From Sedimentisphaerales bacterium (GTDB lineage Bacteria > Planctomycetota > Phycisphaerae > Sedimentisphaerales > Anaerobacaceae): DNA of 64,000 nucleotides. The stretch's first letter is position 1, and each line of letters begins with the position of its first letter. The DNA lies in NCBI GenBank assembly GCA_016931715.1, contig JAFGEF010000107.1, positions 21,932 to 85,931 on the forward strand. The letters are read 5' to 3'. Position numbers and translations under genes: made by a program. Below the pieces are notes generated by a model that saw only the letters and a program-made list of their open reading frames with translations, was not told the DNA's origin and ran no database searches. Shown in pieces: positions 44,319-59,520 of the stretch.

Positions 44319-47300
44319 ATGAAAAATGTAAACATAATCCTAACAATAATTTTCATCATAATAATCTCCTTTACATATGCATCCCAGATAAGAGCAGATT
44401 ATCCAGTTATGTCGCAGCATTATGCCGCTGATCCTACGGCAATTGAATGGGACGGTCGATTATATGTTTATTGTTCCAATGACCAGGAAAACACTGAAAA
44501 TAGCGGCTATATCATGGATTCCATCGTTTGTTTCTCGACGGATGACCTTAAAAACTGGACTGACCACGGAATAGTTTTTGATGCGGATGATGTTTCATGG
44601 ATAGGGACCGCATGGGCCCCGTGTATCGTTCAAAACCATAACAAGCTATACCTTTATTTTGGAGATCCTTATTGGGGTATTGGTGTCGTAACGAGTACCT
44701 CCCCGACGGGTCCGTTTACTGCTCCAAAGAATGGTCTGGTAGTGAAACGCTCAACCCTCTCGGGAGGTACTTCTGGTGCAGATAGCACATGGCTCTTCGA
44801 TCCTGGTGTGTTAGTCGACGATAACGGCCAGCCATATCTCTTTTTCGGTGGAGGCGGATCCAATCAAGCCCGCTATGTATTGCTGGATACAAACATGTAT
44901 GATGCTATAAGTTCAGCTTATCCAATTAATTTCCCGGATTTCTTTGAAGCATCGCATATGCACAAATACAACGGAATTTATTATTATTCCTATGCTGACA
45001 ATTATGACAATAACTACAACAATCCAGCGCCGACACCTGGATCTCAAATCGCATACATGACAAGTTCCAATCCGACAGGCCCATTTGTGTATCAGGGCAT
45101 AGCCCTTGGGCCGCCACCTGATAATTATGGAAATAACAATCACCATACATTTTTTACCTTTCTGGGGCAATGGTATTGTGTGTACCATAATCGCTATCAA
45201 GCGGGGATTGACGGAGTTTCGACCACAGAGCATCGAAATATTTGTCTTGACAGGATGGAATATAATCCCGATGGAACAATCCAGCCTGTCGTTCCAACTA
45301 TCGATGGTCTAACACAATTAAAGTGTCTCGATCCCTGCATAAGAGTAGAAGCTGAAACAATCGCGCAGCAAAGCGGTATCAAAACCGAGACATGCTCGGA
45401 AGGTGGTATGAATGTAACCTCCATTGAAAATGGAGACTGGATACGACTGCGCGGTGTAGATTTTGGTACGGACGCGAATAGTTTTGGTGCTCGTGTTGCC
45501 AGTACTCATTTCAGCGGAAGCATAGAACTGCGGCTGGACAGCCTAAATGGAACCGTGATAGGAACTTGCTTTGTTCCAAATACCGGGGATGCTCAAACAT
45601 GGACTACGGCGTATTGCTCTATATACGAAGCATCTGGTATTCATGATCTTTATCTGAAATTCAAGGGTGATCAGGACAAGAATCTGTTCAATATAAACTG
45701 GTGGCAGTTCGATATAAAATATGACGATGATGTGATTATAGAAACTCTTCCCGATCCAATCCATCTCTATAGCTTTAATGAACAAGGCGGAAATCGGATT
45801 TATGACTCATTCGGTTCGGCTGATGGATGGGTAATTAATGGAGGTGTGTTGAATAATGGAATCCTGAATCTTTCCAAGTCGTTGAGCCAATATGTGGATC
45901 TACCGGATGGACTCGTAAGTTCACTAACTGATTGTACAATTGCCGCCTGGATCAAACTTAACTCTGTCGATAATTGGGTACGCATTTTTGACTTCGGCTC
46001 CGGAACAGGAGTAAATATGTTCCTTACTCCGACTTACTGGGGAAATGCACTTCGTTTTGGGATAAAAAACGATGGCACAGAGCAGAACATCAATTCAACC
46101 CAGGGTCCATTGACGACAGGTTTGTGGACGCATGTCGCAGTCACCCTGCAGGGAAATACCGGTGCTCTCTATGTCAATGGCGTAAAGGCTGGACAGAGTA
46201 ATTCTATAACATGGAATCCAGGTGATCTTGGTGATACGACGCAGAATTGGCTGGGACGTTCGCAATGGAACGATCCTTATCTCGATGGTCAGTTCGACGA
46301 GTTCCGAATTTACGATGTTGCCTTTTCTGCGAATGAGGCCGCATGGCTTTTTGAAGGCGGAGAACCACGTGAATTTGTTTCAGGAACAACGGTCGAGAAG
46401 GTTGAGATCAACGCATCCGAAACTCACCAGACTATCGAAGGTTTGGGCGGAGCGATATGTTTTTATAACGGGTGGTTTACAGCACATCCCTGCAAGCAGG
46501 AAATTTTTGACTATGCTTTTAGCGGTTTAAATCTTTCGATGCTGCGGATTGGTAACTGGTGGCGCGGTGTTAATGGTCAGGATACTGCAATCTATGAAAT
46601 AGCTGAAGCTGCTAATCAAAGATTGGGGCATCCTGTGCCGATTCTGATAAGTTCGTGGTCACCGCCAGCATATTTGAAGAGTAATGGTGAAGTAGGTAAT
46701 GGAGGAACCCTAATCAAAAAAGATGGAGTTTATGATTACACAGGATTTGCCGACTACTGGTACGATTCGATTCAGGACTATATTGCACATGGTATTACTC
46801 CTGCATGGATCGGCATACAGAATGAACCGGACTGGACCGCTCCTTATGATTCGTGCAGGTTTAATCCAAGTGAAGCCCAATGGGACGGACAAAATTACGC
46901 AAGCTTTGCTCTGGCACTTGATGCAGTTCACCAGAAACTGGAAGATGGTATGGCTTCGCCGCCAAAACTGCTTGGACCTGAAAATGTAGGCGTCGGCTAT
47001 AATTGCCTTCAGGATTTTATGGCGGAAATGAACACTGACAGTTTTTACGGGATTGCGCACCACCTCTATAACGGCAGTATCGACAGCAGTCCAGACGGAT
47101 ACAACATGGCTTTTAATGATGTATTGAACACGACAAAAAATCTGTTTCCGGGCAAACCGAGATTCATGACCGAATACGGAGATATTGATGGATTGATACC
47201 GTGCGCGAATTTGATTCACAACTCCCTCGTTGTCGAGCAGGTCAGCGGATACAACCACTGGAGTTTGATTTGGCCCAAAAATAGAAATGATCCAAATGAT

Positions 47301-48635
47301 AATCCCTCCAACGGAAATACGTCACTGGTTGAGATCGAGTTTCCATGGGATTCAAGTGATTGGATAAGTCCAAAGGGCTACTGGATCAACCCGTCTTATT
47401 GGTCGATGAAGCATTATTCTTATTTCATAGAGCCAGAATATAAACGAGTAACGACCCAATCCAGCAATTACGACCTCATGACATCAGCCTTCATTTCGCC
47501 TGACCATAACAGGCTGGTTACTGTGATAATCAATAGAAGCACAGAGTCCCCCGCCATAGTGACATTGGATGTCAATTCTTTTGACTATGATTACTCTCGC
47601 ATCTATCAGAGCATGGGCGATAATCATTTCGAATCACTTGGCAATCTTCACAATTTACAGGTCACTGTACCGGTATCATCAATAACTACAATTGTTCTGG
47701 ATAAAGAAGTGGAGGTCGGGCAGGCCGGCAATCCTACACCTGCTGACTGCGAAACAGGGCAACCCAAAAATGTGACATTGACATGGACACCCGGAACCAG
47801 CGCAACAAGTCATGCGATCTATTTAGGGACGGATTGTAACGCAGTAGCAACTGCAACACCGGAATCGCCGGAATATCAGGGTACAGTTCCAACATCGAGT
47901 TTTATGCCAGAGTCACTTTCTTCCAGTACGACTTATTACTGGTCAGTAGATGAGATAGCCTATTCGAGTATTTGTCCGGGCCAGGTTTGGTCGTTCAGTA
48001 CCGCGCCAGCCGTGTTACATGCTCATCTTAAGTTTGATGAAAAACGCGGCACCGGAGTCTCCGATTCCACAGGCAACGGCTGGAATGGTACGCTTGTTAA
48101 CGGTGGTCTATGGACATCCGGCAAGTCTGGCAATGCGGCAGATTTGGATGGCAGCAATGACTATGTAAGTCTGCCTGCCGGTGTGGTCGATGGCTTGACC
48201 AATTATACGATTTCCTCATGGGTGCACCTTGATACAGTCAGTACATGGTCCCGAGTGTTTGATTTCGGAAGCGGAACTACAAAAAGCATGTATTTAACCC
48301 CGCAGTGTGGTGGGTCGAATACAGTGCGCTTTGCCATCACTACAGGCGGCTCCAGCGGAGAACAGCAAATAAATGGCACTGCCGCGATTCCGTCTGGTGT
48401 CTGGACTCACGTGGCCGTGACATATCAAGCTGGTACTGGTATTCTTTATATTGATGGAATTGAAGTTGGCCGCAACAATAATATATCCCTTACTCCTTCT
48501 TCGCTCGGCCGCACAATGCAAAACTACATCGGCAAGTCCCAATGGCCTGATCCATATCTCAATGGGCGTGTGGATGATTTCCGCATATACTCCGATGTGC
48601 TGAGCGCTTCTGAAGTAGCTGCATTAGCCAAATAA
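44319..48635 (+). CDS. secreted multidomain glycoside hydrolase: GH43, CBM6, LamG, a clan GH-A (GH30-like) barrel, an FN3-like module and LamG
   Basis: A strong RBS (GAGGAG) lies 7 nt upstream and the signal peptide is MKNVNIILTIIFIIIISFTYASQIRA. GH43 motifs are ADPTAIEWDGRLYVY, WAPCIV and FEASHMHKY. The CBM6-like part runs IRVEAETIAQQSG...WWQF. The two LamG modules are (I/V)FDFGSG...WTHVAVT...DEFRIY and DDFRIY. The clan GH-A catalytic motifs are IQNEPD and FMTEYG. Confidence 0.85.
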   Translation: MKNVNIILTIIFIIIISFTYASQIRADYPVMSQHYAADPTAIEWDGRLYVYCSNDQENTENSGYIMDSIVCFSTDDLKNWTDHGIVFDADDVSWIGTAWAPCIVQNHNKLYLYFGDPYWGIGVVTSTSPTGPFTAPKNGLVVKRSTLSGGTSGADSTWLFDPGVLVDDNGQPYLFFGGGGSNQARYVLLDTNMYDAISSAYPINFPDFFEASHMHKYNGIYYYSYADNYDNNYNNPAPTPGSQIAYMTSSNPTGPFVYQGIALGPPPDNYGNNNHHTFFTFLGQWYCVYHNRYQAGIDGVSTTEHRNICLDRMEYNPDGTIQPVVPTIDGLTQLKCLDPCIRVEAETIAQQSGIKTETCSEGGMNVTSIENGDWIRLRGVDFGTDANSFGARVASTHFSGSIELRLDSLNGTVIGTCFVPNTGDAQTWTTAYCSIYEASGIHDLYLKFKGDQDKNLFNINWWQFDIKYDDDVIIETLPDPIHLYSFNEQGGNRIYDSFGSADGWVINGGVLNNGILNLSKSLSQYVDLPDGLVSSLTDCTIAAWIKLNSVDNWVRIFDFGSGTGVNMFLTPTYWGNALRFGIKNDGTEQNINSTQGPLTTGLWTHVAVTLQGNTGALYVNGVKAGQSNSITWNPGDLGDTTQNWLGRSQWNDPYLDGQFDEFRIYDVAFSANEAAWLFEGGEPREFVSGTTVEKVEINASETHQTIEGLGGAICFYNGWFTAHPCKQEIFDYAFSGLNLSMLRIGNWWRGVNGQDTAIYEIAEAANQRLGHPVPILISSWSPPAYLKSNGEVGNGGTLIKKDGVYDYTGFADYWYDSIQDYIAHGITPAWIGIQNEPDWTAPYDSCRFNPSEAQWDGQNYASFALALDAVHQKLEDGMASPPKLLGPENVGVGYNCLQDFMAEMNTDSFYGIAHHLYNGSIDSSPDGYNMAFNDVLNTTKNLFPGKPRFMTEYGDIDGLIPCANLIHNSLVVEQVSGYNHWSLIWPKNRNDPNDNPSNGNTSLVEIEFPWDSSDWISPKGYWINPSYWSMKHYSYFIEPEYKRVTTQSSNYDLMTSAFISPDHNRLVTVIINRSTESPAIVTLDVNSFDYDYSRIYQSMGDNHFESLGNLHNLQVTVPVSSITTIVLDKEVEVGQAGNPTPADCETGQPKNVTLTWTPGTSATSHAIYLGTDCNAVATATPESPEYQGTVPTSSFMPESLSSSTTYYWSVDEIAYSSICPGQVWSFSTAPAVLHAHLKFDEKRGTGVSDSTGNGWNGTLVNGGLWTSGKSGNAADLDGSNDYVSLPAGVVDGLTNYTISSWVHLDTVSTWSRVFDFGSGTTKSMYLTPQCGGSNTVRFAITTGGSSGEQQINGTAAIPSGVWTHVAVTYQAGTGILYIDGIEVGRNNNISLTPSSLGRTMQNYIGKSQWPDPYLNGRVDDFRIYSDVLSASEVAALAK

Positions 48636-49741: not shown

Positions 49742-50237
49742 CTTTTTGCCCTTTCATAATTTTCATTTTATTTGGTAATTGAGAATTTATTCAAATACTG
49801 AACTTGTTGTCAACAGAACCACAAAAATCGAAATCAAAATAGGTTTGTGTTTCATTATGTACCTCCTTTCAAAAATAATCACATATATGTTCTTATTTTC
49901 TTATTTCCACATTTTAGCACTAAAACAAGAAATGTTAAGATATTTTTCGTTTATTGGCATTTTTATAGTAAATATTTTGGCATCGCCATACGCCGTATAT
50001 ATGGCAATTGTTTTTCTTGTTGTTTTTTATGAAAATAGGAAGGAATAAGAAGTTTTGAATTAACTAACAACTAAAGACTAAAAACTATTGATTGCCACAT
50101 AGGGCACAGAAAATAAAGAGATTTTAGCCATAAGCAAAAACATTGCGCTTTGCGCAATAAATAGCAGTCAAACAGGCCGCAGAGAGAAAATACCTGATAA
50201 ATATTGATAATTATGTATGAATTGTGCTTTATTATTG

Positions 50238-50264
50238 TTGACATAAACGCTCTATTGTTATAAA
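50238..50264 (+). promoter_or_regulatory. sigma70-like promoter candidate (TTGACA, 15 nt spacer, TGtTATAAA extended -10)
   Basis: TTGACA lies at 50238-50243. TATAAA lies at 50259-50264, preceded by TGT. It points towards the 43-codon ORF at 50310-50441 and the FRG gene. Promoter consensus in this lineage is unknown. Confidence 0.25.
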
Positions 50265-50441
50265 TAGCATATGTAGTAAAGACGGTCGTACTGAATATTC
50301 GGATCGTCGGTGAGCTTGAGTATTAACGTCGGGCTTAAAGAAAAAGCGAATCGCCTTCCTATTCATGCGGCTGTCATATATTTTACCAAGAAGAAACGCG
50401 AAGAAAAGGACGCTATTGATGTCATACTAAAAACTAAATAA

Positions 50442-50475
50442 TTAACCACGAATTAACACTAATGAACACGAATTA
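50442..50475. repeat. short intergenic repeat module M1 (left copy)
   Basis: The sequence ttaaccacgaattaacactaatgaacacgaatta matches the reverse complement of part of 59521-59561 at 26 of 34 positions by hand alignment. It is low complexity, so support is weak. Confidence 0.35.
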
Positions 50476-50588
50476 TGTAAAACAAGGAGATAGAGGTTTT
50501 TATTAAGAATTAGACACTAATCCGCCAAATTAGTTCTGGCGGACTAAAAGGCACAAAGGTTATGGTAATATTATAGAGCAAGAGTACT

Positions 50589-50912
50589 ATGAAAAGAGTA
50601 GTTGACTACGATGAACTCGCAGGCGAGTTAAATAGTTTCGAAAATAAAGTAGCCCTTCATCCAAATTGGTTATTTAGAGGTCAGACAAATAGCGATTGGA
50701 CTTTGAAACCTTCTTTTACAAGAATAGCGGAAAAAAGGAGGCTTAGCAGAAATCAAGCTCTCCAATTAGAGCGTGAAGCTGTGCATAAGTTCTCTATAAG
50801 CGGAAGCAAGCTTCTGCCGCTAAAGTATACGATCGACTTGACCCTATCGCGTTTCAAGTCTCAGAATGGTGCTGGCATTGATTTTGGGAGATTATTGGTA
50901 GTAAGACAATGA
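50589..50912 (+). CDS. FRG-domain protein, apparently a truncated N-terminal fragment (possible pseudogene)
   Basis: The stretch HPNWLFRGQTNSDWTLKPSFTR is the eponymous FRG motif. The ORF stops after 107 aa, before the region that normally follows in FRG proteins of about 250 aa. Confidence 0.5.
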   Translation: MKRVVDYDELAGELNSFENKVALHPNWLFRGQTNSDWTLKPSFTRIAEKRRLSRNQALQLEREAVHKFSISGSKLLPLKYTIDLTLSRFKSQNGAGIDFGRLLVVRQ

Positions 50913-51006
50913 GATTAAACAATTAAATATTAGCTCGAGTTGGTGGAAAATGTGATGTTGTATGGCCCCAAACAAATATTAGCAGGGCTCAGTTAGGTGA
51001 AACAAA

Positions 51007-51774
51007 ATGACAGTAGACGAATATCTGCAAAAATTGGTTAATAAATATCGAGTTCCAGCTGTTGCACAAGGAACGCCAGAATTTAAAGCAGCAAACTCAA
51101 TATATCCAATTATACAAAGATGGGCAGGCAACCAATTAAGAGAAGTTACTTTTTCTGGCTCTAATGCCAAAGGCACAGCTATACGTGGGAGAACAGATGT
51201 AGATTTATTTATATCCTTAAAATCGGACACAAATGAAACCTTAAAAGAAATATTTAACAGTCTATATAATTATATGGTTCAGAATGGATATTCTTCCACA
51301 AAGAAACAACATGTTTCTATTCATATAGTTCATAGTGGTATTGAAGTTGATTTAGTTCCTGCAAAACACTTCGGTGGTAATACCGAGGACCATTGGCTTT
51401 ATGTGAATAGACCAAACAGAGAAAGAATAAAAACTAACGTTAATGAACACATTAACTTGGTAAGGGATTCGAACCGGACAAATGAAATAATCCTAACAAA
51501 AATCTGGCGACTAAATCATAACTTGGATTTCCCGTCGTTTTATCTGGAGCTTGTTGTTATCGAAGCGTTGAAATATAAACGTGTAGGACTTTCAGAAAAT
51601 TTCTTATCAGTTCTGGAATATCTATCAAACAGTTTTATCTCGGCTCGTTTCATTGATCCAGCGAATACAAACAATATCATTTCTGATGATCTCGCAGACA
51701 TTGAAAAGAAAGCCATTGCCAGTCAGGCAAAGAAAAGCAAGGCAGAACGGTTATGGGAAAGTATTGTATGGTAA
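51007..51774 (+). CDS. Pol-beta superfamily nucleotidyltransferase, OAS/CD-NTase/SMODS-like
   Basis: The stretch FSGSNAKGTAIRGRTDVDLFISL gives the GS...GT...DxD signature, and the third acidic residue is in IEVDLVPA. The helical C-terminal half contains TKIWRLNHNLDFPSFYLELVVIEAL and IDPANTNNIIS, as in OAS/CD-NTase-type enzymes. Confidence 0.7.
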   Translation: MTVDEYLQKLVNKYRVPAVAQGTPEFKAANSIYPIIQRWAGNQLREVTFSGSNAKGTAIRGRTDVDLFISLKSDTNETLKEIFNSLYNYMVQNGYSSTKKQHVSIHIVHSGIEVDLVPAKHFGGNTEDHWLYVNRPNRERIKTNVNEHINLVRDSNRTNEIILTKIWRLNHNLDFPSFYLELVVIEALKYKRVGLSENFLSVLEYLSNSFISARFIDPANTNNIISDDLADIEKKAIASQAKKSKAERLWESIVW

Positions 51775-52493
51775 AACCTAAGAATCAAATCGATATCAGA
51801 GAAATATTTTTAGGTATGCAACGGCAGATGCGCACAAAGCTTACTTTGAACAGAAAAATATTGACTCACCCTGTTGTAAAAGGTGATGTAAGTGAAGCGG
51901 AATGGATTGACATGCTTTCATCGTATTTGCCAAGCCGCTATCGAGTTGATAAGGCATTTGTTATTGATTGCGACGGCATTGTGAGCGATCAAATTGACAT
52001 TGTTATTTATGACCGCCATTATTCGCCTTTTATTCTCAAACAAAACGGCTCAACGTATATCCCTGCCGAAAGTGTTTATGCAGTGATCGAGGTCAAACCA
52101 ACTTTGACTGCGAAAAATATTGACTACGCCGCACATAAAGCCTATTCTGTACGAAGACTTAAACGCACAACTGCACGAATTGTTCATGCAGCTGGAGAAA
52201 TAAAAAAGCCTAAAAAACCATTCAATATTCTGGCGGGAATTTTAACAATAGATGGTAAATGTACCGATGCCTTGAAGACAAAACTTATGAAACTGCCCAA
52301 GAAGCAGACTTTGCAATTCGGGTGTTCACTTGACTATGTTTCATTCTGGTTAAAGAAGAATAAATTTGAGAAGAGTTTGCAGACAGACGCACTGATTTTC
52401 TTTTTTATTAATTTACTATCGGAGCTTCAGCAATTAGGGACGGTGAGTGCAATTAATTTGAAAGCATATATAAAAACCTTTAAGGAAAAATAA
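51768..52493 (+). CDS. DUF6602-like PD-(D/E)xK (restriction-endonuclease fold) protein
   Basis: The stretch THPVVKGDVSEAEWIDMLSSYLPSRYRVDKAFVIDCDGIVSDQIDIVIYDRHYSPFILKQNGSTYIPAESVYAVIEVKPTL matches my memory of the DUF6602 core (E...YLP..Y...D..G..S.Q.DIVIYD...P.E.VYAVIEVK). The start is either ATG 51753 or ATG 51768. The latter overlaps the NTase stop as ATGGTAA. Confidence 0.65.
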   Translation: MVKPKNQIDIREIFLGMQRQMRTKLTLNRKILTHPVVKGDVSEAEWIDMLSSYLPSRYRVDKAFVIDCDGIVSDQIDIVIYDRHYSPFILKQNGSTYIPAESVYAVIEVKPTLTAKNIDYAAHKAYSVRRLKRTTARIVHAAGEIKKPKKPFNILAGILTIDGKCTDALKTKLMKLPKKQTLQFGCSLDYVSFWLKKNKFEKSLQTDALIFFFINLLSELQQLGTVSAINLKAYIKTFKEK

Positions 52494-52543
52494 TATTATT
52501 TTATTATATACAAAATAATATGAATAGCTATTAGGATAATCCA

Positions 52544-54328
52544 ATGGAACCGGAAAAACTAAAACCATACAAATCGTTTTTATTTTGTACGATTGCAGAT
52601 ATTCCTGTCACAACAGTAAGTGATGATATTGAGGAACTGGTAAAAGGAAAAGAAGGTACTGTTCTTTCAAGAAATAATCTTGAACCAGAAGGTTTGGAAA
52701 TATCATTATTTACTTATATTGATAAAATAACACCTCCTTGGAGTAATGATGAATCTGTAAAAGATATTATTAATGAATTAGTAGTAGTAGTTAAAAAGAA
52801 TAAATATATTGCTATTTATTCTTCAAATACATCTATTCGAGATACTATCAGAAGTTTTATATCTGGCACAAAGAAGAAAAAAGAAAATAAATTTACTTAT
52901 CTAAAACTTATTCCGCGCGGTTTACTAAACGCTGCTTTTATTAAAGGACAAACTCAAACATTATGGCTGTCAGGAACACATAGACGAACCGCTTCAAAGG
53001 TGGATAATAAAATTATCAACGGTCTTGATTTGCGATACGCTTTAGATCCGTTGGGTGATCAGTCATTTTTCTTTACTGCCGCAAGATGCAAGCTCCCGAC
53101 TAATATATTTAAAAATCTTATTGGTATATCGCCCAGAAAAAGTTCTCTATGGGCGGGTTTTTCTAAACAATGGGATGATTTTATTGTTAGTACAAAATTA
53201 CTATTAAACCTTTTAGAAGATACCAAAAAGCCTAATCAGAATCCATTACCAATATTAGCTGAAAGTATTAATGGATTAAATGACTTAGAAAATATTGGTA
53301 AATGTTATGATGCTGCAATTATTCCCCCCATATTGCTTGCAGAAACAGATATAGACTCTAATGATCGAAAAGATGCTGAAATGTGGAATGAATTGCATTT
53401 TGAAATAGTTTCGACTGAAAGCTCATTGAATTTTAAGGCGGAAGTTTCGTTATTTGAAATTGATAAGTTAAATAACATCGGAACATTTTCATTTACGTTT
53501 GATGATTTGACTATGTTACCACAGGTTGAATACAAAATTGAAGGTGAAGCAGCATCATCGGAGAATCAAGAAATTTTTAACAAAGCTCTTAATATGTTAC
53601 AAACTAATAAGAATTGGCTAAAAGTATGGTATGATTCAGGACATGTCATTGCAGAAAGAGAAATCTTTTTGCACCGGTTTCGTGATATGCCTTTTATGCA
53701 TTTTGAAGGACAAGCTTTAATTAATATCTCTATTAAAAATGAAAAGCCGCCTTATCCGATCGAGGATAATATTGGAAAGCATAAGTCACTTTTTTGTTAT
53801 GTTAAGAATACACTAACGAAAGGTTGGTTGACTTGTGATGATGGATCAATGGAAATGGCTGATTTTATTCATTTTAATAAAATCACGGATAAACCAACAA
53901 TCTCTCTCATTCATGTAAAGGCTTCCAAAAAAAATGAACCAAAACGTAATATGGCGGTATCTGATTATGAAATAGTTGTTAGCCAGGCAATTAAGAATAT
54001 TCGATATTTGAGCACAGATAATTTATTGGAAGGCTTAACAGCCGGGTTGAAAAAGAAGATACAAAATGCTACATGGAAGGATGGGAAAAAGCAGAGTAAT
54101 GGACGCAAAGGGATGCTAAAAGAAATTGAAAAATGTGGAACCAACATTTCTTATAAAGTTATTGTTTTTCAACCGCGTGCTCGTATTTCAGAAATTGAAA
54201 AGACCAGAGTAAATAAGAAGGGAAAATCATATAAGATTTTGCAACAACTTGATACTTTATTATTGGGAGCCAGTCATGATTGTCAATCTGCAGGAGCAGA
54301 ATTTATAGCTTGGATAGATGGTAGTTGA
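52544..54328 (+). CDS. 594-aa hypothetical protein with a C-terminal endonuclease-fold-like motif
   Basis: AGGA lies 7 nt upstream of the ATG. About 420 aa at the N-terminus have no recognisable family. The C-terminus reads CDDGSMEMADFIHFNKITDKPTISLIHVKASKK...VSDYEIVVSQAIKNIRYL and is reminiscent of sporadically distributed TIGR04141/DUF6119-type proteins (tentative). Confidence 0.55.
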   Translation: MEPEKLKPYKSFLFCTIADIPVTTVSDDIEELVKGKEGTVLSRNNLEPEGLEISLFTYIDKITPPWSNDESVKDIINELVVVVKKNKYIAIYSSNTSIRDTIRSFISGTKKKKENKFTYLKLIPRGLLNAAFIKGQTQTLWLSGTHRRTASKVDNKIINGLDLRYALDPLGDQSFFFTAARCKLPTNIFKNLIGISPRKSSLWAGFSKQWDDFIVSTKLLLNLLEDTKKPNQNPLPILAESINGLNDLENIGKCYDAAIIPPILLAETDIDSNDRKDAEMWNELHFEIVSTESSLNFKAEVSLFEIDKLNNIGTFSFTFDDLTMLPQVEYKIEGEAASSENQEIFNKALNMLQTNKNWLKVWYDSGHVIAEREIFLHRFRDMPFMHFEGQALINISIKNEKPPYPIEDNIGKHKSLFCYVKNTLTKGWLTCDDGSMEMADFIHFNKITDKPTISLIHVKASKKNEPKRNMAVSDYEIVVSQAIKNIRYLSTDNLLEGLTAGLKKKIQNATWKDGKKQSNGRKGMLKEIEKCGTNISYKVIVFQPRARISEIEKTRVNKKGKSYKILQQLDTLLLGASHDCQSAGAEFIAWIDGS

Positions 54329-54340
54329 GTTAGGATTTGT

Positions 54341-55066
54341 ATGGGAAAGCAACGATTATTAGTAAGTATTAGAGGTAAAAAGGAAGCTTTAGCAGCAATA
54401 AAAGGTGGTGCTCAAATTGCTGATGTCGAATTTCCGGCTTCGGCCTTAGGGACACCGTATCCGTTAAATATTCGAGTAGTTAGAAATGCTATGCCCAAGC
54501 ATATCAAAGTTGCAACCAATATCGGCGAGGAACAGTCTGGTCGTTCAAGTGCATGTCAGGCAGCTTTAGGTGTGGCGTTGGCGGGGGCAGATATTGTCAA
54601 ATTAGGCCTTGCTAAAATGTCTCTTGGTGAAGCAAAAGAGTTCGGGCCGGCACTCGTTAGAACGGTCAAGAAATGGTTTCCGCGAAAGCAATGTATTCCA
54701 GCATTATTTGCTGATGAACGTCTGGCCAATTGGTATATTGACCCTATAAAACAAGGACCTGAATTAGCAGAACTTATGAAAGCAGATGGATTATTGGTGG
54801 ATACTTTTGATAAATCACTTGGAAAAGGTCTGATGGATTATTATACAATTGGTGATATCAGAAAATTTGTAAAGAAATGCCATGATAGGAATATTGAGGC
54901 ATGGTTGGCAGGAAGTATTGGTAAAGATGAACTTCCTGATTTGTGGGAAGCTGGGGTTGATGTTGTTTGTGTTCGTGGTGCTGCTTGTAAGTCGGGTACA
55001 GGACCGGGAAGATTTGGAGAAGTTGATACAAAACTTGTGAAAGAACTAATTAGTACTATTCCATGA
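54341..55066 (+). CDS. MfnB/DUF556-like class I aldolase TIM-barrel ((5-formylfuran-3-yl)methyl phosphate synthase family)
   Basis: Supporting blocks are LLVSIRGKKEALAAIKGGAQIADVEFPASALGTPYP, GADIVKLGL, LLVDTFDKSLGKGL, EAWLAGSIG and VDVVCVRGAAC. Their order and spacing match the family pattern. Confidence 0.6.
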   Translation: MGKQRLLVSIRGKKEALAAIKGGAQIADVEFPASALGTPYPLNIRVVRNAMPKHIKVATNIGEEQSGRSSACQAALGVALAGADIVKLGLAKMSLGEAKEFGPALVRTVKKWFPRKQCIPALFADERLANWYIDPIKQGPELAELMKADGLLVDTFDKSLGKGLMDYYTIGDIRKFVKKCHDRNIEAWLAGSIGKDELPDLWEAGVDVVCVRGAACKSGTGPGRFGEVDTKLVKELISTIP

Positions 55067-55890
55067 CAGCTGAAGAAAAGAACCAGAATAAAGGATATTT
55101 GAATGGTGCTCGAGTTTATCTTTCGGGTCCCATGGATTTTGTTGCTTCTCGCGAAGAAGAAAAAAAGAATGGATGGCGGATTCGTGTAAAACAATTCCTC
55201 CAGTCCTACGGAGCAATAGTTTTTGATCCATGGGAAAAGCCTAAAGTTCGTGGCCTTCATGAATATGGCAAAGAAGGTGTTGTTTCAATCAATGTACGCG
55301 AGAATTGGACATTTGAAGAAAGTAGAAAGGGTGCTGAAATACGTTCTGAATGTGCTCAAAAATTTTATGAAACCATGCATATAGATTTAAGAATGGTTGA
55401 TATAAGCGATTTTGTAATTGCATATTGCCCGACAAATATATATAGCGTTGGTACTCCTCATGAAATAATCACTGCAAGAAACCAGCAAAAGCCGGTTTTA
55501 TTTATTAGTACTCCGGTTGTATTTCCTGCTTTGGAGAATTTGAAAACTCATCTTAATAGCTCTGGAGATAAAGCTGGTTTGCAGTTATTAAACGAATTAG
55601 AAAATCAGGTTCCAATTAAACAAAATCCCAAAGGGATACCAAGTTTATGGTATATGCCTTTGATTGGAAGTAACAACTTTTTTGATAGTTTTGGTTTTTC
55701 TAAATATGCTGAAAAATATAAATGGTCTAAGTCTCCTTCAGATGATCTTGAACAGCATAATCCACCAAAGCGACCATTATTAGATTTTCTCAGGCAATTA
55801 AACATGAAGCTTCCACAAAAATGGAATATAAATAAAAATAAAATTGAAAAAGATGATGACTGGCTCTTGCTTGATATAAAGCAGGTATGA
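55063..55890 (+). CDS. nucleoside 2-deoxyribosyltransferase-like (NDT/LOG/DNPH1-superfamily) protein with a C-terminal extension of about 110 aa
   Basis: Supporting blocks are ARVYLSGPMDF, VFDPW and DLRMVDISDFVIAYCPTNIYSVGTPHEIITARNQQKPVLFIS. Together these give the YxxGP start, the acidic D, and the GTxxE(I/L)xxA...KPV pattern. The start is an ATGA overlap with the preceding gene. Confidence 0.55.
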   Translation: MTAEEKNQNKGYLNGARVYLSGPMDFVASREEEKKNGWRIRVKQFLQSYGAIVFDPWEKPKVRGLHEYGKEGVVSINVRENWTFEESRKGAEIRSECAQKFYETMHIDLRMVDISDFVIAYCPTNIYSVGTPHEIITARNQQKPVLFISTPVVFPALENLKTHLNSSGDKAGLQLLNELENQVPIKQNPKGIPSLWYMPLIGSNNFFDSFGFSKYAEKYKWSKSPSDDLEQHNPPKRPLLDFLRQLNMKLPQKWNINKNKIEKDDDWLLLDIKQV

Positions 55891-55915
55891 ATAATCTATC
55901 AAATTCTTTTAAAGA

Positions 55916-57928
55916 CTATACAGATTTTTCCACAATTTCTTCTGATAAAGTATAATTATAATACTGAAGACCTGTTTCAGATTCCTCTATAGTATCAGCA
56001 TTACCAACCGATGCAGACAAAGGTTTATCACACTTTATTATAGCAATATCAATATGACACTTATAGTTCTGGCAAGTATTATTACGCATAGATAATAAGT
56101 CATATAGATTGGAAGAATTTTCTTTAAATGTATTATTAAAATCAAAAATAAGATATAAACCAACTGTAGGCCTACCTTCAATCTTATCTTTTAGCATGTG
56201 TTGAACTAATTCTTTATCAATCCCTTGTTTCCAGTTACCGGAATCTTTCTTAAGCTCTATCCATAACTTATTTGGTTGTCGCTCAATGAGATAGTCACAT
56301 TGACCAAGTCCGCTATCTCCCTTTGGAGTTAATATTGCTCCTCGTTTACGAACATAGTGATCAAGTTGAAGTCTCATAAGAGCATCAATATTTTTTTCCT
56401 TGACAGGAATATTTTTCTCATACCAAAGTGCATTCCAAAAACCACCGAGGCGAATATCTTTTACCAAAGTTTTAAGAAAATCATGAATTCCTTCGAGAAG
56501 ACCTTTATTTCCTTTTTCAAAAGGTGCATCAATACTCTGTTGTGTTATTATAACTGTCTGAGTAGTATTCGTTACTTCATATAGGTGACTGCTAATGAGC
56601 GGCTCTAATCCCGATCTTTCAGGTAATTGTTTTATTCTTTCCATTAAATCATCGTGCATATTAACAATCTGGAATACTATTCCAGCATCTTTACTATGTT
56701 TATCACGTTTTTCTTCGTATCTCCACCCTCGCAATGCTTGGGCTCTACAACAAAATCGGCATCCATCCTTGCTATCAACAAGGGTCAGGTTAACAAAATT
56801 TATTACCCGCTTATGTTCCTGATTACGAAGTTTTATAGTAACTAGCTCATTCTTAAATCCTGTGCAATCTTCTATATAATCATCCCATTTGATATGGACA
56901 CCATTACCTTGGATAGCAAAATCAACAACAGTTCCATATAAATCTACTGTATTTTCTTCATACACACAATTGATTATGGCATTCCATCCGTTACCATTTC
57001 TTCGAAGTGGCCGAGGATCTCTTCCGCATAAACAAGGGATTAATTCAGATAAAGGACTTTGAAGTAAACGTCTTGTATCGATCATATCTCTATGTAATGC
57101 ATTTAAAATCTTATAAGCATCTTCGAAATATGATGAAATTAAAGATGGACGATTACAACTTAATCTATCTATGCCTGTCCTTTGTATGAGATTTGGTAAT
57201 TTTGATAAAACTCTTCGAACGTCGTATGTTTCCTGTTGTAGAGCTATTTCGGGATTACGTCTTACTGCAATATCAATCAGCTTTATTGTCTCAAGGATAT
57301 AGCGTGGCACTAATTCTTTTTTTACAGAGAGGATAGACTCGAGGATTTCTGACAGAAATACACTTGCTGATTTATTAACAGTCTCCGTATTGTCCGGTGA
57401 GAGGAGTGTCCCAATCCTTGAAACATATCCCGTAACAGCTCTCCCGAAATGTTCGGTTTCATTATAGAGACCTTCAAGACGAAGAAGTCTAAGGTAGCTT
57501 GGTAGGATCTTTTCATTAACATATTGTAAATCCGATATCCAACCTTCTAATACTTTTTGTGGATTGAGAATGCGGTTGTAATTTGGATTTTTTTGGGCCA
57601 ATACTTCCTCACCTCCAAGTCCATATTTCCATGTATCAAAAAGAATGGGGAATATCTTTTCGCACAATTCCTCTGCTTCGGGTATAAATGCTAATGATTT
57701 CATTATTTGTATAGCCCTTGCGCAAAATAAAGGACAATCTGGCCATTTAGCTTTATCCGTTAGTTCTTGAGCTTTATTGATAATACGAGCCTTCACACTT
57801 GATGTGAGTTTGCCTCCATGCAGAATGTATTCAATCTCTTCTAACATATTATGTCCTATTGTATTAACACAGGTGTGATTAAACCATTCGCTATGTGTAT
57901 CAATTGGTGTATTTTGTTTTCCTAACAT
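55916..57928 (-). CDS. 670-aa hypothetical protein: helical N-domain, PilZ-like barrel signature and PD-(D/E)xK-like C-terminal domain
   Basis: GGAG lies 9 nt upstream of ATG 57928. R306-P-L-R-R310 and D336-F-A-I-Q-G341 match the PilZ motifs. D545...E558-L-K560 (CDYLIERQPNKLWIELKK) matches a nuclease core. No family is assigned with certainty. Confidence 0.55.
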   Translation of the reverse strand: MLGKQNTPIDTHSEWFNHTCVNTIGHNMLEEIEYILHGGKLTSSVKARIINKAQELTDKAKWPDCPLFCARAIQIMKSLAFIPEAEELCEKIFPILFDTWKYGLGGEEVLAQKNPNYNRILNPQKVLEGWISDLQYVNEKILPSYLRLLRLEGLYNETEHFGRAVTGYVSRIGTLLSPDNTETVNKSASVFLSEILESILSVKKELVPRYILETIKLIDIAVRRNPEIALQQETYDVRRVLSKLPNLIQRTGIDRLSCNRPSLISSYFEDAYKILNALHRDMIDTRRLLQSPLSELIPCLCGRDPRPLRRNGNGWNAIINCVYEENTVDLYGTVVDFAIQGNGVHIKWDDYIEDCTGFKNELVTIKLRNQEHKRVINFVNLTLVDSKDGCRFCCRAQALRGWRYEEKRDKHSKDAGIVFQIVNMHDDLMERIKQLPERSGLEPLISSHLYEVTNTTQTVIITQQSIDAPFEKGNKGLLEGIHDFLKTLVKDIRLGGFWNALWYEKNIPVKEKNIDALMRLQLDHYVRKRGAILTPKGDSGLGQCDYLIERQPNKLWIELKKDSGNWKQGIDKELVQHMLKDKIEGRPTVGLYLIFDFNNTFKENSSNLYDLLSMRNNTCQNYKCHIDIAIIKCDKPLSASVGNADTIEESETGLQYYNYTLSEEIVEKSV

Positions 57929-58017
57929 TATAATTCTCCAGTTAAGATATTAAAGAGGAACTATAACCTGTAATATTCTTATAATCCTTATAAGATGATT
58001 TATTCATATTAAACGTA

Positions 58018-58989
58018 TCATTTGTTACTAATTGTTAGTTTTCTATTCACAATAAAGGTATTATTTGAAAGTTTTGGAGGATGATCTCGGAAACACAATT
58101 CAAGGTAAAAATCACTACTTGGTTTTCCATAAAACCAAAGCATCTCTTTAGCCAATTTTCTATCACTATGACGAACTGGAATGATACAGATACTTCCATC
58201 CATAACCTCGACAGGAGTTCCAAGAGTTTGAAATAGAACTATGTCGTATGCTTCTGGCGCTATATGAGCTTTATTTGGTTGGATATGAGTATAAAATAAT
58301 TCTTTTGCCTCTCTTGTAGCATATACAGTGTCAAAAGTTGCAATTTCATTAAGTAAACGAGTATAGCTGGACACAGATAACCATGGTTGTTGCCCAATAA
58401 GATAATCATAAGTTGCACCGTCAAATTTAAGATTAAGAACAAACATATCCTTTGCTTTCGGAGCTAATGGAGGTAGAAGAAAAGATGTAAATGAAGGTTC
58501 CTTACCTCTATGATTTTCAGGTTTTAAGTCTATCTTATGTTGTTCATTCATAAAGCAACCTTCTGGACCCGCTATTGAATATTCGATTGGTTGTTGAGCT
58601 ATAGACAGACAATTTACTCTTGGATAAAATAGAATCGATTTATCATCATTTGTATTTTGAATGATTCGGTCAGAATACAAACGATTTAGAAGATTCAAAG
58701 CTTCATTTTCAGTCTCAAAATCAAATGGTTCCAGCCATCCTTGCACATCTCCACGGTGGACTACGCGAGCACGCATCGGAATCGTATAAGGATTTTCAAG
58801 AAACAGAATTAAGGTGATATATACTTCTCTATCTTCGTTTTTAAATACCAATCCTTCAGTCACTTGTCGTGCTATCAATGAGGGACATGTTGGCCATTCA
58901 GAAGTGAGGACAATGCAGTCAGATCCACAATTGCAACTGTACTTTTTATGATTGGTGGTATTTAAGTGAGTATTATTTTTTTGATTCAT
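58018..58989 (-). CDS. 323-aa hypothetical protein (Cys-rich N-terminus), upstream partner of the 670-aa gene
   Basis: GGAG lies 10 nt upstream of ATG 58989. The N-terminus is YSCNCGSDCIVLTSEWPTCPS. The gap to the next gene on the same strand is 89 nt. No family is recognised. Confidence 0.5.
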   Translation of the reverse strand: MNQKNNTHLNTTNHKKYSCNCGSDCIVLTSEWPTCPSLIARQVTEGLVFKNEDREVYITLILFLENPYTIPMRARVVHRGDVQGWLEPFDFETENEALNLLNRLYSDRIIQNTNDDKSILFYPRVNCLSIAQQPIEYSIAGPEGCFMNEQHKIDLKPENHRGKEPSFTSFLLPPLAPKAKDMFVLNLKFDGATYDYLIGQQPWLSVSSYTRLLNEIATFDTVYATREAKELFYTHIQPNKAHIAPEAYDIVLFQTLGTPVEVMDGSICIIPVRHSDRKLAKEMLWFYGKPSSDFYLELCFRDHPPKLSNNTFIVNRKLTISNK

Positions 58990-59520
58990 AAATATAACTC
59001 CAAAAATAACATTTAATATAATATAAATACAGATTATTTGGACCCATCTGAAGCAAGTTAAAATTATTGCGGTAGTCTATGTATTTATGGTTTAAGAGGG
59101 AATTAGAATTTAACACAATTAGTTGTTCAGATGATATATTAAGAATTCTGAAAGTAAAATGGCGATAGAATTTCAGCGAAACCAAGGATAGTAGAGGTGA
59201 AAAAAAATTAATGATTCCACAATGAGTATTCTTCATTCTCTGTCCTTGTATTTTTACTTTTCTTTTTTAAAACAGACAATAATGCTAATCTAATCCTACA
59301 TCGATTAGCTATCTACAAAAATAAATCTTTTCCGAATATTACATTGTAATACAATTATGTAAGATTTGTCAATTGTGGTAACTACGTATTTTAATACGAA
59401 AAATATTTGTTTTTGAGCTAAAAACAAGCATTAGTAGAAATTTATTATTCTTCTTAGAAAAAGCATATGAAAATATAGTCCGAATCCTTTTTATATGGCG
59501 TTAGGGTATTTTTTTGATTT

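Follow-up and report, generated by a model that had tools for sequence, protein, structure and literature searches.

Organization of the island

Within a 64,000-nucleotide (nt) stretch of contig JAFGEF010000107.1 from a Sedimentisphaerales (Planctomycetota) metagenome-assembled genome (MAG), hereafter the window, five closely spaced plus-strand genes (genes 1-5, Table 1) lie in an AT-rich tract and had been taken in a first-pass annotation, made from the letters alone, for one conserved defense unit. The defense character of the locus was borne out by our analysis, its unity was not. We consider it likely, at a probability of roughly 65%, that the tract is an AT-rich defense island of ~10 kb in which two independent systems stand in tandem: a type I cyclic-oligonucleotide-based antiphage signaling system (CBASS) formed by genes 1 and 2, and a module at 52544-58989 that begins with gene 3 and includes two convergent genes beyond gene 5.

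All five open reading frames are present where they had been annotated, and so are the junctions described for them, namely the ATGGTAA overlap of genes 1 and 2 (51768-51774), the 50-nt spacer between genes 2 and 3 with an AGGA 7 nt before 52544, the 12-nt spacer between genes 3 and 4 with an AGGA upstream of 54341, and the ATGA overlap of genes 4 and 5 (55063-55066). The first in-frame ATG of gene 2 lies at 51753, 15 nt upstream of 51768; the gene may start at 51768, an alternative that overlaps the stop codon of gene 1. A terminator scan found no plus-strand terminator-like site inside the five-gene array, so that co-transcription of the array is plausible rather than demonstrated, and a promoter scan of the array gave no promoter-like matches above shuffled controls.

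The higher AT content previously noted by eye holds when computed, with a GC content of 0.352 over 51007-55890 versus 0.435 to the left and 0.427 to the right. The low-GC tract itself extends from 49742 to 59500 (GC 0.344), twice the length of the five genes, and contains an FRG-domain fragment, the CBASS pair, genes 3-5 and two convergent genes encoding proteins of 670 and 323 amino acids (aa). Around the island we found no tRNA, no integrase and no convincing flanking repeats as signatures of a mobile element.

Table 1. Features of the AT-rich island, in positions of the window
Feature	Position	Strand	Length	Remark
Gene 1	51007-51774	+	255 aa	
Gene 2	51753/51768-52493	+	246/241 aa	
Gene 3	52544-54328	+	594 aa	
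Gene 4	54341-55066	+	241 aa	
Gene 5	55063-55890	+	275 aa	
670-aa protein	55916-57928	-	670 aa	Convergent with gene 5, 25 nt apart
323-aa protein	58018-58989	-	323 aa	Partner of the 670-aa protein
FRG-domain fragment	50589-50912	+	107 aa	Left edge of the AT-rich island

Genes 1 and 2 are assigned to a minimal type I CBASS

The product of gene 1 matches the PADLOC profile of a CBASS oligonucleotide cyclase, PDLC00803, over its whole length (1e-85; residues 1-255 against profile positions 1-253 of 253) and the Pfam family SMODS above the gathering cut-off (2.5e-9; SMODS/NTP_transf_2 domains). The catalytic residues of the Pol-beta superfamily are present in its translation (GSNAKGT...DVD...VDLVPA), and the nearest solved structure is the CdnC of Escherichia coli MS115-1 (6p80, 2e-5). 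By these sequence matches gene 1 is a short cGAS/DncV-like nucleotidyltransferase (CD-NTase), a CdnC-related CBASS oligonucleotide cyclase; the CD-NTase-like character proposed for it earlier is thus supported by both PADLOC and Pfam. Its scores against the NCBIfam equivalogs CBASS_cyclase_a/b (71.6 and 45.3 bits) do not reach the cut-off of 200, which does not contradict the PADLOC assignment because gene 1 belongs to a shorter clade outside both models.

Gene 2 had been described as a DUF6602-like nuclease, and the family assignment stands (Pfam, 3.2e-33); what had been missed is its identity as NucC. It matches the PADLOC effector 'Endonuclease (NucC)' PDLC00745 at 2.5e-88 and the NucC profile PDLC01051 at 2.2e-60, aligns over its full length with the solved NucC structures 6uxf (9e-47), 7zgv, 6p7o and 6q1h, and carries an ID-x30-EVK site (QIDIVIYD, 30 residues, EVK) at which the alignment to 6uxf is conserved. 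We accordingly annotate gene 2, from its sequence, as a NucC endonuclease effector. Because NucC is a canonical cyclic-oligonucleotide-activated effector, genes 1 and 2 (51007-52493) are assigned to a complete minimal type I CBASS, so that the statements that the locus lacks a canonical partner and matches no named system do not hold. No HORMA, TRIP13, Cap2, Cap3 or QueC/TGT/OGG protein was matched among the eight genes of the island by Pfam, PADLOC or NCBIfam.

NucC has been characterized in the type III CBASS of E. coli MS115-1 and Pseudomonas aeruginosa, and in type III CRISPR loci. The pair in the window resembles known CBASS with NucC in that a CD-NTase precedes a NucC of full length whose ID-x30-E-x-K site is intact, and in that its nearest solved cyclase, CdnC, is the natural partner of NucC. 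It differs in its unusually short cyclase of the PDLC00803 type, which scores far below the equivalog cut-offs, and in having no HORMA/TRIP13 or Cap2/Cap3 regulators. By analogy with this characterized family, from which product and phenotype are transferred while the gene identities come from the matches above, infection would activate the CdnC-like CD-NTase to synthesize a cyclic oligonucleotide, and this would in turn activate NucC, leading to degradation of DNA and abortion of the infection. The NucC effector and the similarity of the cyclase to CdnC make a cyclic trinucleotide the probable signal.

Cyclases related to the short one, at 44-48% identity, were found on 25 plasmids. On plasmids of Paenibacillus rhizovicinus and Cupriavidus taiwanensis (L177, L178) the cyclase is directly followed by a DUF6602/NucC gene, the pair standing alone, with no relative of genes 3-5 within 5 kb. 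Neither cyclase nor NucC has relatives on IMG/VR viral contigs with the search patterns used. CBASS with NucC being already known, this half of the island is routine: one further short-cyclase/NucC pair, from a Sedimentisphaerales MAG.

Gene 4 encodes an MfnB-fold barrel that lacks the Schiff-base lysine

Gene 4 matches the Pfam family 4HFCP_synth (PF04476; 1.5e-40, 139.8 bits against a cut-off of 22.4) and the MfnB of Methanocaldococcus jannaschii, MJ1099 (PDB 4rc1; 2.5e-30). In MfnB, two lysines and two aspartates are essential and common to deoxyribose-phosphate aldolase (DERA), and Lys27 forms the Schiff base (PMC6604932). The residues corresponding to MfnB Asp25, Lys85, Asp151 and Lys155 (D28, K87, D154 and K158 in gene 4) are invariant in 24 aligned subfamily members, whereas Lys27 is replaced by Glu30, a glutamate in 24 of 24 members (DVE[FY]PA versus DVKNP); of 80 metagenome loci, 68 carry the motif DVE[YF]P or DIEYP. 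Because the Schiff-base lysine is lost, we read gene 4 not as an MfnB but as an MfnB/DERA-like TIM barrel with altered chemistry, so that of its earlier description as an MfnB-like aldolase the fold is retained and the identity as a true MfnB is not. Its scores of 135.6 and 124.5 bits against the NCBIfam equivalogs do not reach the cut-offs of 341 and 304. The name (5-formylfuran-3-yl)methyl phosphate synthase, given by source databases to relatives of gene 4, is probably wrong for the same missing lysine.

The subfamily further differs from MfnB in being bacterial and located in defense islands rather than in a methanofuran context; no methanofuran or methylofuran (mfn) gene occurs in any neighborhood inspected. 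It comprises 1137 matches, the top 120 of which are 70-92% identical to gene 4, and is absent from 2.9 million viral contigs (IMG/VR) with the patterns used. Plasmid matches obtained for gene 4 were rejected as true MfnB-type genes of ~30% identity.

Gene 5 encodes a predicted N-glycosidase of the NDT/DNPH1 fold

The sequence of gene 5 has no match in the PDB and the profile of its family gave only chance matches to PDB sequences; its assignment comes from the predicted structure. In a Foldseek comparison of its model (predicted local distance difference test, pLDDT, 73.5) with the PDB, the top 47 matches were all nucleoside 2-deoxyribosyltransferase (NDT), PTD or DNPH1 structures, with probability ~1.0, a best E value of 2e-4 and a template modeling (TM) score by target of ~0.5, in support of the NDT/DNPH1 type suggested for it earlier. 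Two stretches, YLSGPMDF and S128-V-G-T-P-H-E134, are invariant among 29 aligned sequences, and the spacing of S128 and E134 is that of the S-x-G-x-G-x-E motif of Rcl/DNPH1, as seen through K13, a 162-aa protein of related loci described below. According to this model, gene 5 encodes an N-glycosidase of the NDT/DNPH1 fold, extended at its C-terminus in a manner specific to the family; it shares with DNPH1/Rcl and the NDTs the fold and the Ser(-6)...Glu spacing of the candidate catalytic motif, and differs from them in its length of 275 aa with a conserved extension of ~125 aa, and in the missing sequence match to the PDB. DNPH1/Rcl is a 2'-deoxynucleoside 5'-phosphate N-hydrolase, and the human enzyme is named in the PDB as 5-hydroxymethyl-dUMP hydrolase, which removes hydroxymethyl-dUMP.

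An NDT-fold N-glycosidase is reportedly used in an anti-phage system as the NDT-like effector of Retron-Eco1 (Ec86). The island shares with this retron an NDT-fold N-glycosidase as a candidate anti-phage component; it has no reverse transcriptase (RT) or non-coding RNA (ncRNA), and gene 5, which is paired with an aldolase-like barrel, comes from a different family of much higher conservation.

The gene 5 family comprises 2269 matches, the top 120 being 58-88% identical and spanning several phyla; its profile is positive in 299 of 185,579 species genomes (~0.16%), and the gene is absent from 72,556 plasmids. In Chthoniobacterales (Verrucomicrobiota), relatives of 58-62% identity (L024-L078) stand without an MfnB-like neighbor in a syntenic block that adjoins HI0933-like flavoprotein, YggS-like, DUF72-like and YihY-like genes, families judged by eye. 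These solitary copies may be orphans or may have a housekeeping role.

The barrel and the N-glycosidase recur as a pair in defense islands

Gene neighborhoods were scanned at 166 loci, of which 80 were anchored on gene 5 (profile searched against the 185,579 species genomes), 80 on gene 4 (profile searched against metagenome contigs, 257 positive) and the remainder were L001-L006; L097, a duplicate of L007, was not counted as independent. Contexts of gene 4 were counted over 70 non-redundant loci, 40 of which have at least 1.5 kb of upstream sequence.

The pairing of the two enzymes was seen in four architectures. In the first, gene 4 is joined by gene 5. In the second, a gene 5 relative stands beside a 598-aa protein (C3) whose C-terminal half is MfnB-like (hhalign 92.6%). 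The third is an operon of PtuA, PtuB, an AdoMet_dc-like decarboxylase, a DUF3326 protein and an NDT-like protein, with the MfnB-like gene divergent. In the fourth, K13 lies directly upstream of sister MfnB-like genes that are 58-63% identical to gene 4; K13 passes the Pfam threshold for NDT and matches rat and human DNPH1/Rcl in the PDB at 7.4e-10 through S-x-G-x-G-x-E. Recurrence across these architectures suggests that the pairing of an N-glycosidase with an MfnB/DERA barrel is ancient and has been assembled repeatedly.

The commonest arrangement involves Septu: PtuA is directly upstream and divergent in 18 of the 40 gene 4 loci with sufficient upstream sequence, and the six-gene Septu cluster is present in L105 (4244-9720, gaps of 1-29 nt), L175, L176, L174, L125 and ~15 more loci. 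A nuclease-like gene (DUF6119, the gene 3 family or K9) is directly upstream on the same strand in 9 of 70. In L174 (5459-6625) the AdoMet_dc-like gene is replaced by a pyridoxal phosphate (PLP)-dependent decarboxylase of the Orn/DAP/Arg type (Pfam), and the same replacement is probably present in L166 (1557-2732) and L167 (3722-4888); the enzymes swapped are not orthologous, yet a decarboxylation step beside DUF3326 is retained. DUF3326 is the family of PavB, which condenses amines with a decarboxylase in the biosynthesis of pavettamine (bioRxiv 10.64898/2026.06.12.731819). In L173, PtuAB is itself replaced by a 353-aa protein. The combination of Septu with an added module recalls Retron-Eco7 (Ec78, type I-A), in which PtuAB is combined with RT-msDNA (PMC12819146, PMC12673091): in both, PtuAB shares an operon with an extra non-nuclease module. 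The difference is that the module added here consists of small-molecule enzymes instead of RT and ncRNA, and that the island in the window has no PADLOC match to PtuA or PtuB, which occur only in related loci; their place is occupied by gene 3 and the 670-aa/323-aa pair.

Other immediate neighbors of the gene 4 family include LmuB, HamB, Shedu, Cap5, CD-NTase, CBASS E2 and restriction-modification genes; L002 and L174 have WYL regulators at the flanks of the module. Among individual arrangements, L152 (1523-5046) has Lamassu LmuB, an MfnB-like gene and then a Cap5 fragment, and L164 (3236-8340) has Hachiman HamB, a DNPH1-like NDT, an MfnB-like gene and then Shedu SduA. At L001 (4199-11771), L005, L016 and L043, a 292-aa protein without a domain match is accompanied by an NDT-like protein, the 598-aa protein with the MfnB-like tail and a protein of the EEP family (Exo_endo_phos); the L001 version adjoins Septu PtuA/PtuB directly downstream. 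When C2, C3, K9 and K25 were compared with AdoMetDC-like, DUF3326 and gene 3 profiles, the only domain recovered was the MfnB-like one in C3. K24 (393 aa), taken by eye for an NDT-domain protein, is unsupported by Pfam or hhalign. Equal lengths of the longest contig, taken as a proxy for co-occurrence, were informative for genes 4 and 5, which have 24 lengths in common, and misleading for P0131/P0007, where L098 (3296 bp) carries PtuA upstream instead of a gene 3 relative.

The remark in the first-pass annotation that the aldolase-like component lacks a precedent agrees with our searches: the MfnB-like/NDT-like module has no match in PADLOC-DB 2023 and no description was found in 8 million full texts, a result that marks the scope of the search and is not proof of absence. 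The six-gene Septu cluster, too, appears to be undescribed.

Gene 3 and the convergent genes

Gene 3 (100% identical to NCBI JW787_12735) has no Pfam domain, and its match to the PADLOC candidate PDC-S71 (8.2e-13) covers only residues 397-493, against profile positions 393-484 of 589, short of a full-length match. A whole-chain fold search of its AlphaFold model (pLDDT 87.6) against the PDB gave no significant match; the N-terminal region matches phage RdgC in BFVD (3.5e-6 to 1e-3), and the C-terminus has weak structural matches to HamA (probability 0.91) and FokI. The C-terminal unit is a predicted alpha-beta-beta-beta-alpha fold with invariant D440, H457-x-K459 and Q481, in which histidine replaces an acidic residue, and it resembles the C-terminus of a ResIII helicase-nuclease that adjoins MfnB-like genes (hhalign 84%, E 8e-6). 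The model thus points to an RdgC-like DNA-binding region followed by a PD-(D/E)xK-like C-terminal domain in a distant relative of PDC-S71, in keeping with the nuclease-type cores earlier seen in genes 2 and 3. With PDC-S71, an untested single-gene candidate in PADLOC, gene 3 shares a conserved core at equivalent positions and a similar length; it differs in that only ~100 residues match and in that its nearest relatives are linked to genes 4 and 5.

Among the 313 relatives of gene 3, a truncated one (58% identity) lies in an insertion sequence (IS)-rich island at L090 (6038-10744); it has a Prok-JAB protein on one side and Metallophos and EEP genes on the other, and DUF87 and methyltransferase genes are nearby. 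Kinship of gene 3 with DUF6119 was suggested by motif likeness by eye only; BLASTP and hhalign gave nothing significant, and there is no similarity between gene 3 and the 598-aa C3 protein.

The 670-aa and 323-aa proteins encoded on the opposite strand have no Pfam or PADLOC match. An alignment of the 670-aa family reveals an invariant GxGxC-D545-Y...E558-L-K560...KQGI in the C-terminal core, a signature that reads as a canonical PD-(D/E)xK core, and the protein matches phrog_30194 over residues 486-640 (1.3e-6). The family is rare (44 representative clusters among 1.84 billion proteins) and the patterns searched on IMG/VR viral contigs recovered none of its relatives. Homologs of both proteins stand beside the gene 4-5 pair elsewhere, those of the 670-aa protein in L126 (4e-72), L093 (4e-37) and L002-L004 (2e-54), and those of the 323-aa protein in L093 (1.3e-50), L126 (3.7e-22) and L002-L004 (1.7e-41). 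In L002-L004 the two are fused in one 996-aa protein, of which the 323-aa part forms the C-terminal third, and this fusion suggests that they work together. The annotation of the fusion in L002 (8991-11981) by the Joint Genome Institute (JGI) is PF28130/DUF8371, a family missing from our local Pfam copy. The order and orientation of these genes differ among L002-L004, L093 and L126, which argues for selection rather than for a copied block. By their recurrence beside genes 4 and 5, the second unit probably spans 52544-58989, so that the right boundary formerly drawn at 55890 would move to 58989.

One system or two

The recurrence of gene sets separates the two halves of the island. In L007, from a Pirellulales MAG, and in L180 the trio of genes 3-4-5 keeps its order in the absence of CBASS (gene 3 at 61% and 67% identity, respectively), so that the order, with gaps of 12-18 nt, is found on three independent contigs including the window (gene 3 at 61-68% identity); L002, L093 and L120 show an analogous order in which DUF6119 precedes genes 4 and 5. 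The cyclase and NucC in turn occur without genes 3-5, and across the 166 loci of the gene 4 and gene 5 scans no NucC was found and the cyclase type of gene 1 only once (L171). The unity proposed by the first-pass annotation had been tied to synteny in other genomes; by this measure the five-gene set, never syntenic elsewhere, falls apart, and genes 3-5, syntenic in L007 and L180, remain together.

If all five genes nevertheless belonged to one CBASS-like system, genes 3-5 would be its accessory or effector proteins, answering to the CD-NTase signal, processing it or regulating it, comparable to QueC/TGT/OGG of type IV CBASS. Tight spacing on one strand without an internal terminator would fit such an arrangement, as would the loci in which CBASS parts accompany MfnB-like genes: Cap5, CD-NTase, E2, MfnB-like and helicase-nuclease genes lie on one strand in L168 (2612-10191), a PDLC00803 cyclase (1e-72) is followed by a CBASS E2 and, 311 nt downstream, by an MfnB-like gene in L171 (3741-6512), and in L152 and L158 an MfnB-like gene lies 13-29 nt upstream of a Cap5-like gene. 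The arrangement in L171 and L168 may be a chance island neighborhood or a real link to CBASS. Set against these loci, gene 4-5 pairs accompany gene 3 (L007, L180) or DUF6119 (L002, L093) with no CBASS gene, the cyclase and NucC stand alone in L177 and L178, and CBASS is near only ~10% of non-redundant gene 4 loci, a share similar to that of Hachiman, Lamassu and restriction-modification and far below that of Septu. The gaps from E2 to the MfnB-like gene in L168 and L171 are 300-480 nt, and Pfam and PADLOC detected no SAVED, CARF or STING-type sensor domain in genes 3-5. On balance a single five-gene system appears improbable.

A division into three systems, namely CBASS, gene 3 on its own as a nuclease of the PDC-S71 type, and the enzyme pair, whether or not joined by the 670-aa/323-aa proteins, is also unlikely, to a lesser degree. 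It would account for the gene 3 relatives of 35-42% identity that stand alone in unrelated contexts (L087, L088, L091), for the listing of PDC-S71 in PADLOC as a single-gene candidate and for the many other partners of the enzyme pair. It is harder to reconcile with the conserved gene 3-4-5 order and its 12-18 nt gaps on three independent contigs, and with the nine non-redundant loci in which other nuclease-like proteins (DUF6119, K9) occupy the position directly upstream of gene 4.

Several observations weigh against two independent systems as we have delimited them. With a gap of only 50 nt between genes 2 and 3, and no terminator in it, one transcript may span both systems, which could then interact; components of CBASS are near MfnB-like genes in ~7 of 70 loci, and the cyclase of L171 is of the PDLC00803 type. 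Gene 3 may be a third system, as its relatives, DUF6119 and PtuAB are also autonomous without the enzymes. L007, finally, has genes 3-4-5 and no 670-aa/323-aa pair within 3.3 kb downstream, which makes the pair a frequent, not an obligatory, partner.

Proposed function of the second module

The segment 52544-58989 is probably a separate defense-island module with genes 4 and 5 as its core. This proposal starts from the folds of the two enzymes, the loss of Lys27, the conservation of the DNPH1-like motif, their repeated pairing and the operons that they share with nucleases. In a working model, the N-glycosidase of gene 5 would, like DNPH1, act on a 5'-phosphorylated (deoxy)nucleoside and remove or exchange its base, and the barrel of gene 4 would convert the released (deoxy)ribose 5-phosphate. 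As this product belongs to the substrate class of a DERA-like barrel, the two enzymes may constitute a two-step shunt that converts deoxynucleotides. The outcome could be that the deoxynucleotide pool needed for phage replication is drained or sanitized, or that a sugar-phosphate-derived ligand or modification is supplied to DNA-targeting partners.

Among the possible chemistries, depletion or conversion is our tentative first choice, held at well under even odds; a ligand or signal is a weaker possibility, DNA modification and a non-defense metabolic role are each rather unlikely, and some other function is the least likely. The partners point in different directions: the decarboxylase and DUF3326 favor a biosynthetic product, and the autonomous nucleases favor an autonomous enzyme module.

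A DNA or nucleotide modification module, in which genes 4 and 5 (with the decarboxylase and DUF3326) would modify and the variable nucleases would restrict, as in Dnd, Ssp or Dpd, would explain why the enzymes are strongly conserved and the nuclease partners vary, and why orphan enzyme copies occur without nucleases, as is the case for orphan modification genes. The decarboxylase, non-orthologously replaced yet kept, suggests a biosynthetic pathway using an amine building block, and gene 3 contributes an RdgC-like DNA-binding region. Such a module is nonetheless doubtful: PtuAB, the gene 3 family and DUF6119 also occur alone, which would be lethal if they cut unmodified DNA, and no ATPase or DpdA/TGT-type transglycosylase is present. 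It also counts against modification that we know of no NDT-fold enzyme acting on DNA.

Genes 4 and 5 could alternatively be ordinary metabolic genes, of nucleotide salvage or catabolism or of a furan or cofactor pathway, leaving only CBASS and perhaps gene 3 for defense. The very high conservation across phyla is what such genes would show; the source annotation of gene 4 relatives as (5-formylfuran-3-yl)methyl phosphate synthase, the syntenic, housekeeping-like neighborhoods of gene 5 relatives in Chthoniobacterales and the housekeeping genes flanking L173, L175 and L176 are in line with it. The sporadic occurrence in ~0.16% of species genomes and the low-GC island are not, nor are the tight operons with PtuA/PtuB (gaps of 1-29 nt, L105), the repeated adjacency of Septu, Lamassu, Hachiman, Shedu, CBASS, restriction-modification and WYL genes, the loss of the MfnB catalytic lysine and the absence of methanofuran genes nearby, and we judge this explanation to be improbable.

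A defense module of the proposed kind has its own difficulties. Both its role and its mechanism are drawn from sequences and models. The Pfam score of gene 5 against Nuc_deoxyrib_tr (PF05014; 3.4e-4, 21.2 bits) is under the gathering cut-off of 28.8, a minority of its family members have a precomputed PF05014 match, and Glu134 is a candidate catalytic residue assigned by motif only. Conservation of 70-92% (gene 4) and 58-88% (gene 5) is unusual for defense proteins, many of the Chthoniobacterales relatives of gene 5 stand alone in housekeeping-looking surroundings, and a pure depletion model leaves the decarboxylase and DUF3326 partners unexplained.

The logic of the second module, nucleotide-processing enzymes joined to nucleases, is known; its parts are unprecedented. 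The core enzymes, very strongly conserved, are present in ~300 genomes at the species level and in metagenomic protein clusters numbering thousands, repeatedly within defense islands in operons with Septu or other nucleases. Should they form a defense module, they could represent a new attack on the deoxynucleotide supply of phages, for which a DNPH1-type enzyme would be an obvious choice where phage DNA is modified, or a new small-molecule layer controlling Septu-like nucleases. A wider and more speculative possibility is that the barrel and the N-glycosidase are the core of a large unrecognized anti-phage family, in some cases with a decarboxylase and DUF3326 added, making a new small molecule (signal, nuclease ligand or modification) for interchangeable nucleases such as PtuAB, DUF6119, the gene 3 family and the 670-aa/323-aa proteins; if so, this would be a new biochemical principle in bacterial immunity.

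Neighboring features

The FRG-domain fragment matches Pfam FRG at 6.3e-5, under the gathering cut-off, and PADLOC PDC-S15 at 1.3e-8, a match confined to the N-terminal part of models 254-420 aa long. It is probably the remnant of another, decayed defense gene that belongs to neither system. Just left of the island, at 44319-48635 on the plus strand, lies a gene for a secreted-looking protein of 1438 aa with a glycoside-hydrolase-like region and two LamG-like regions, as judged by eye from the translation.

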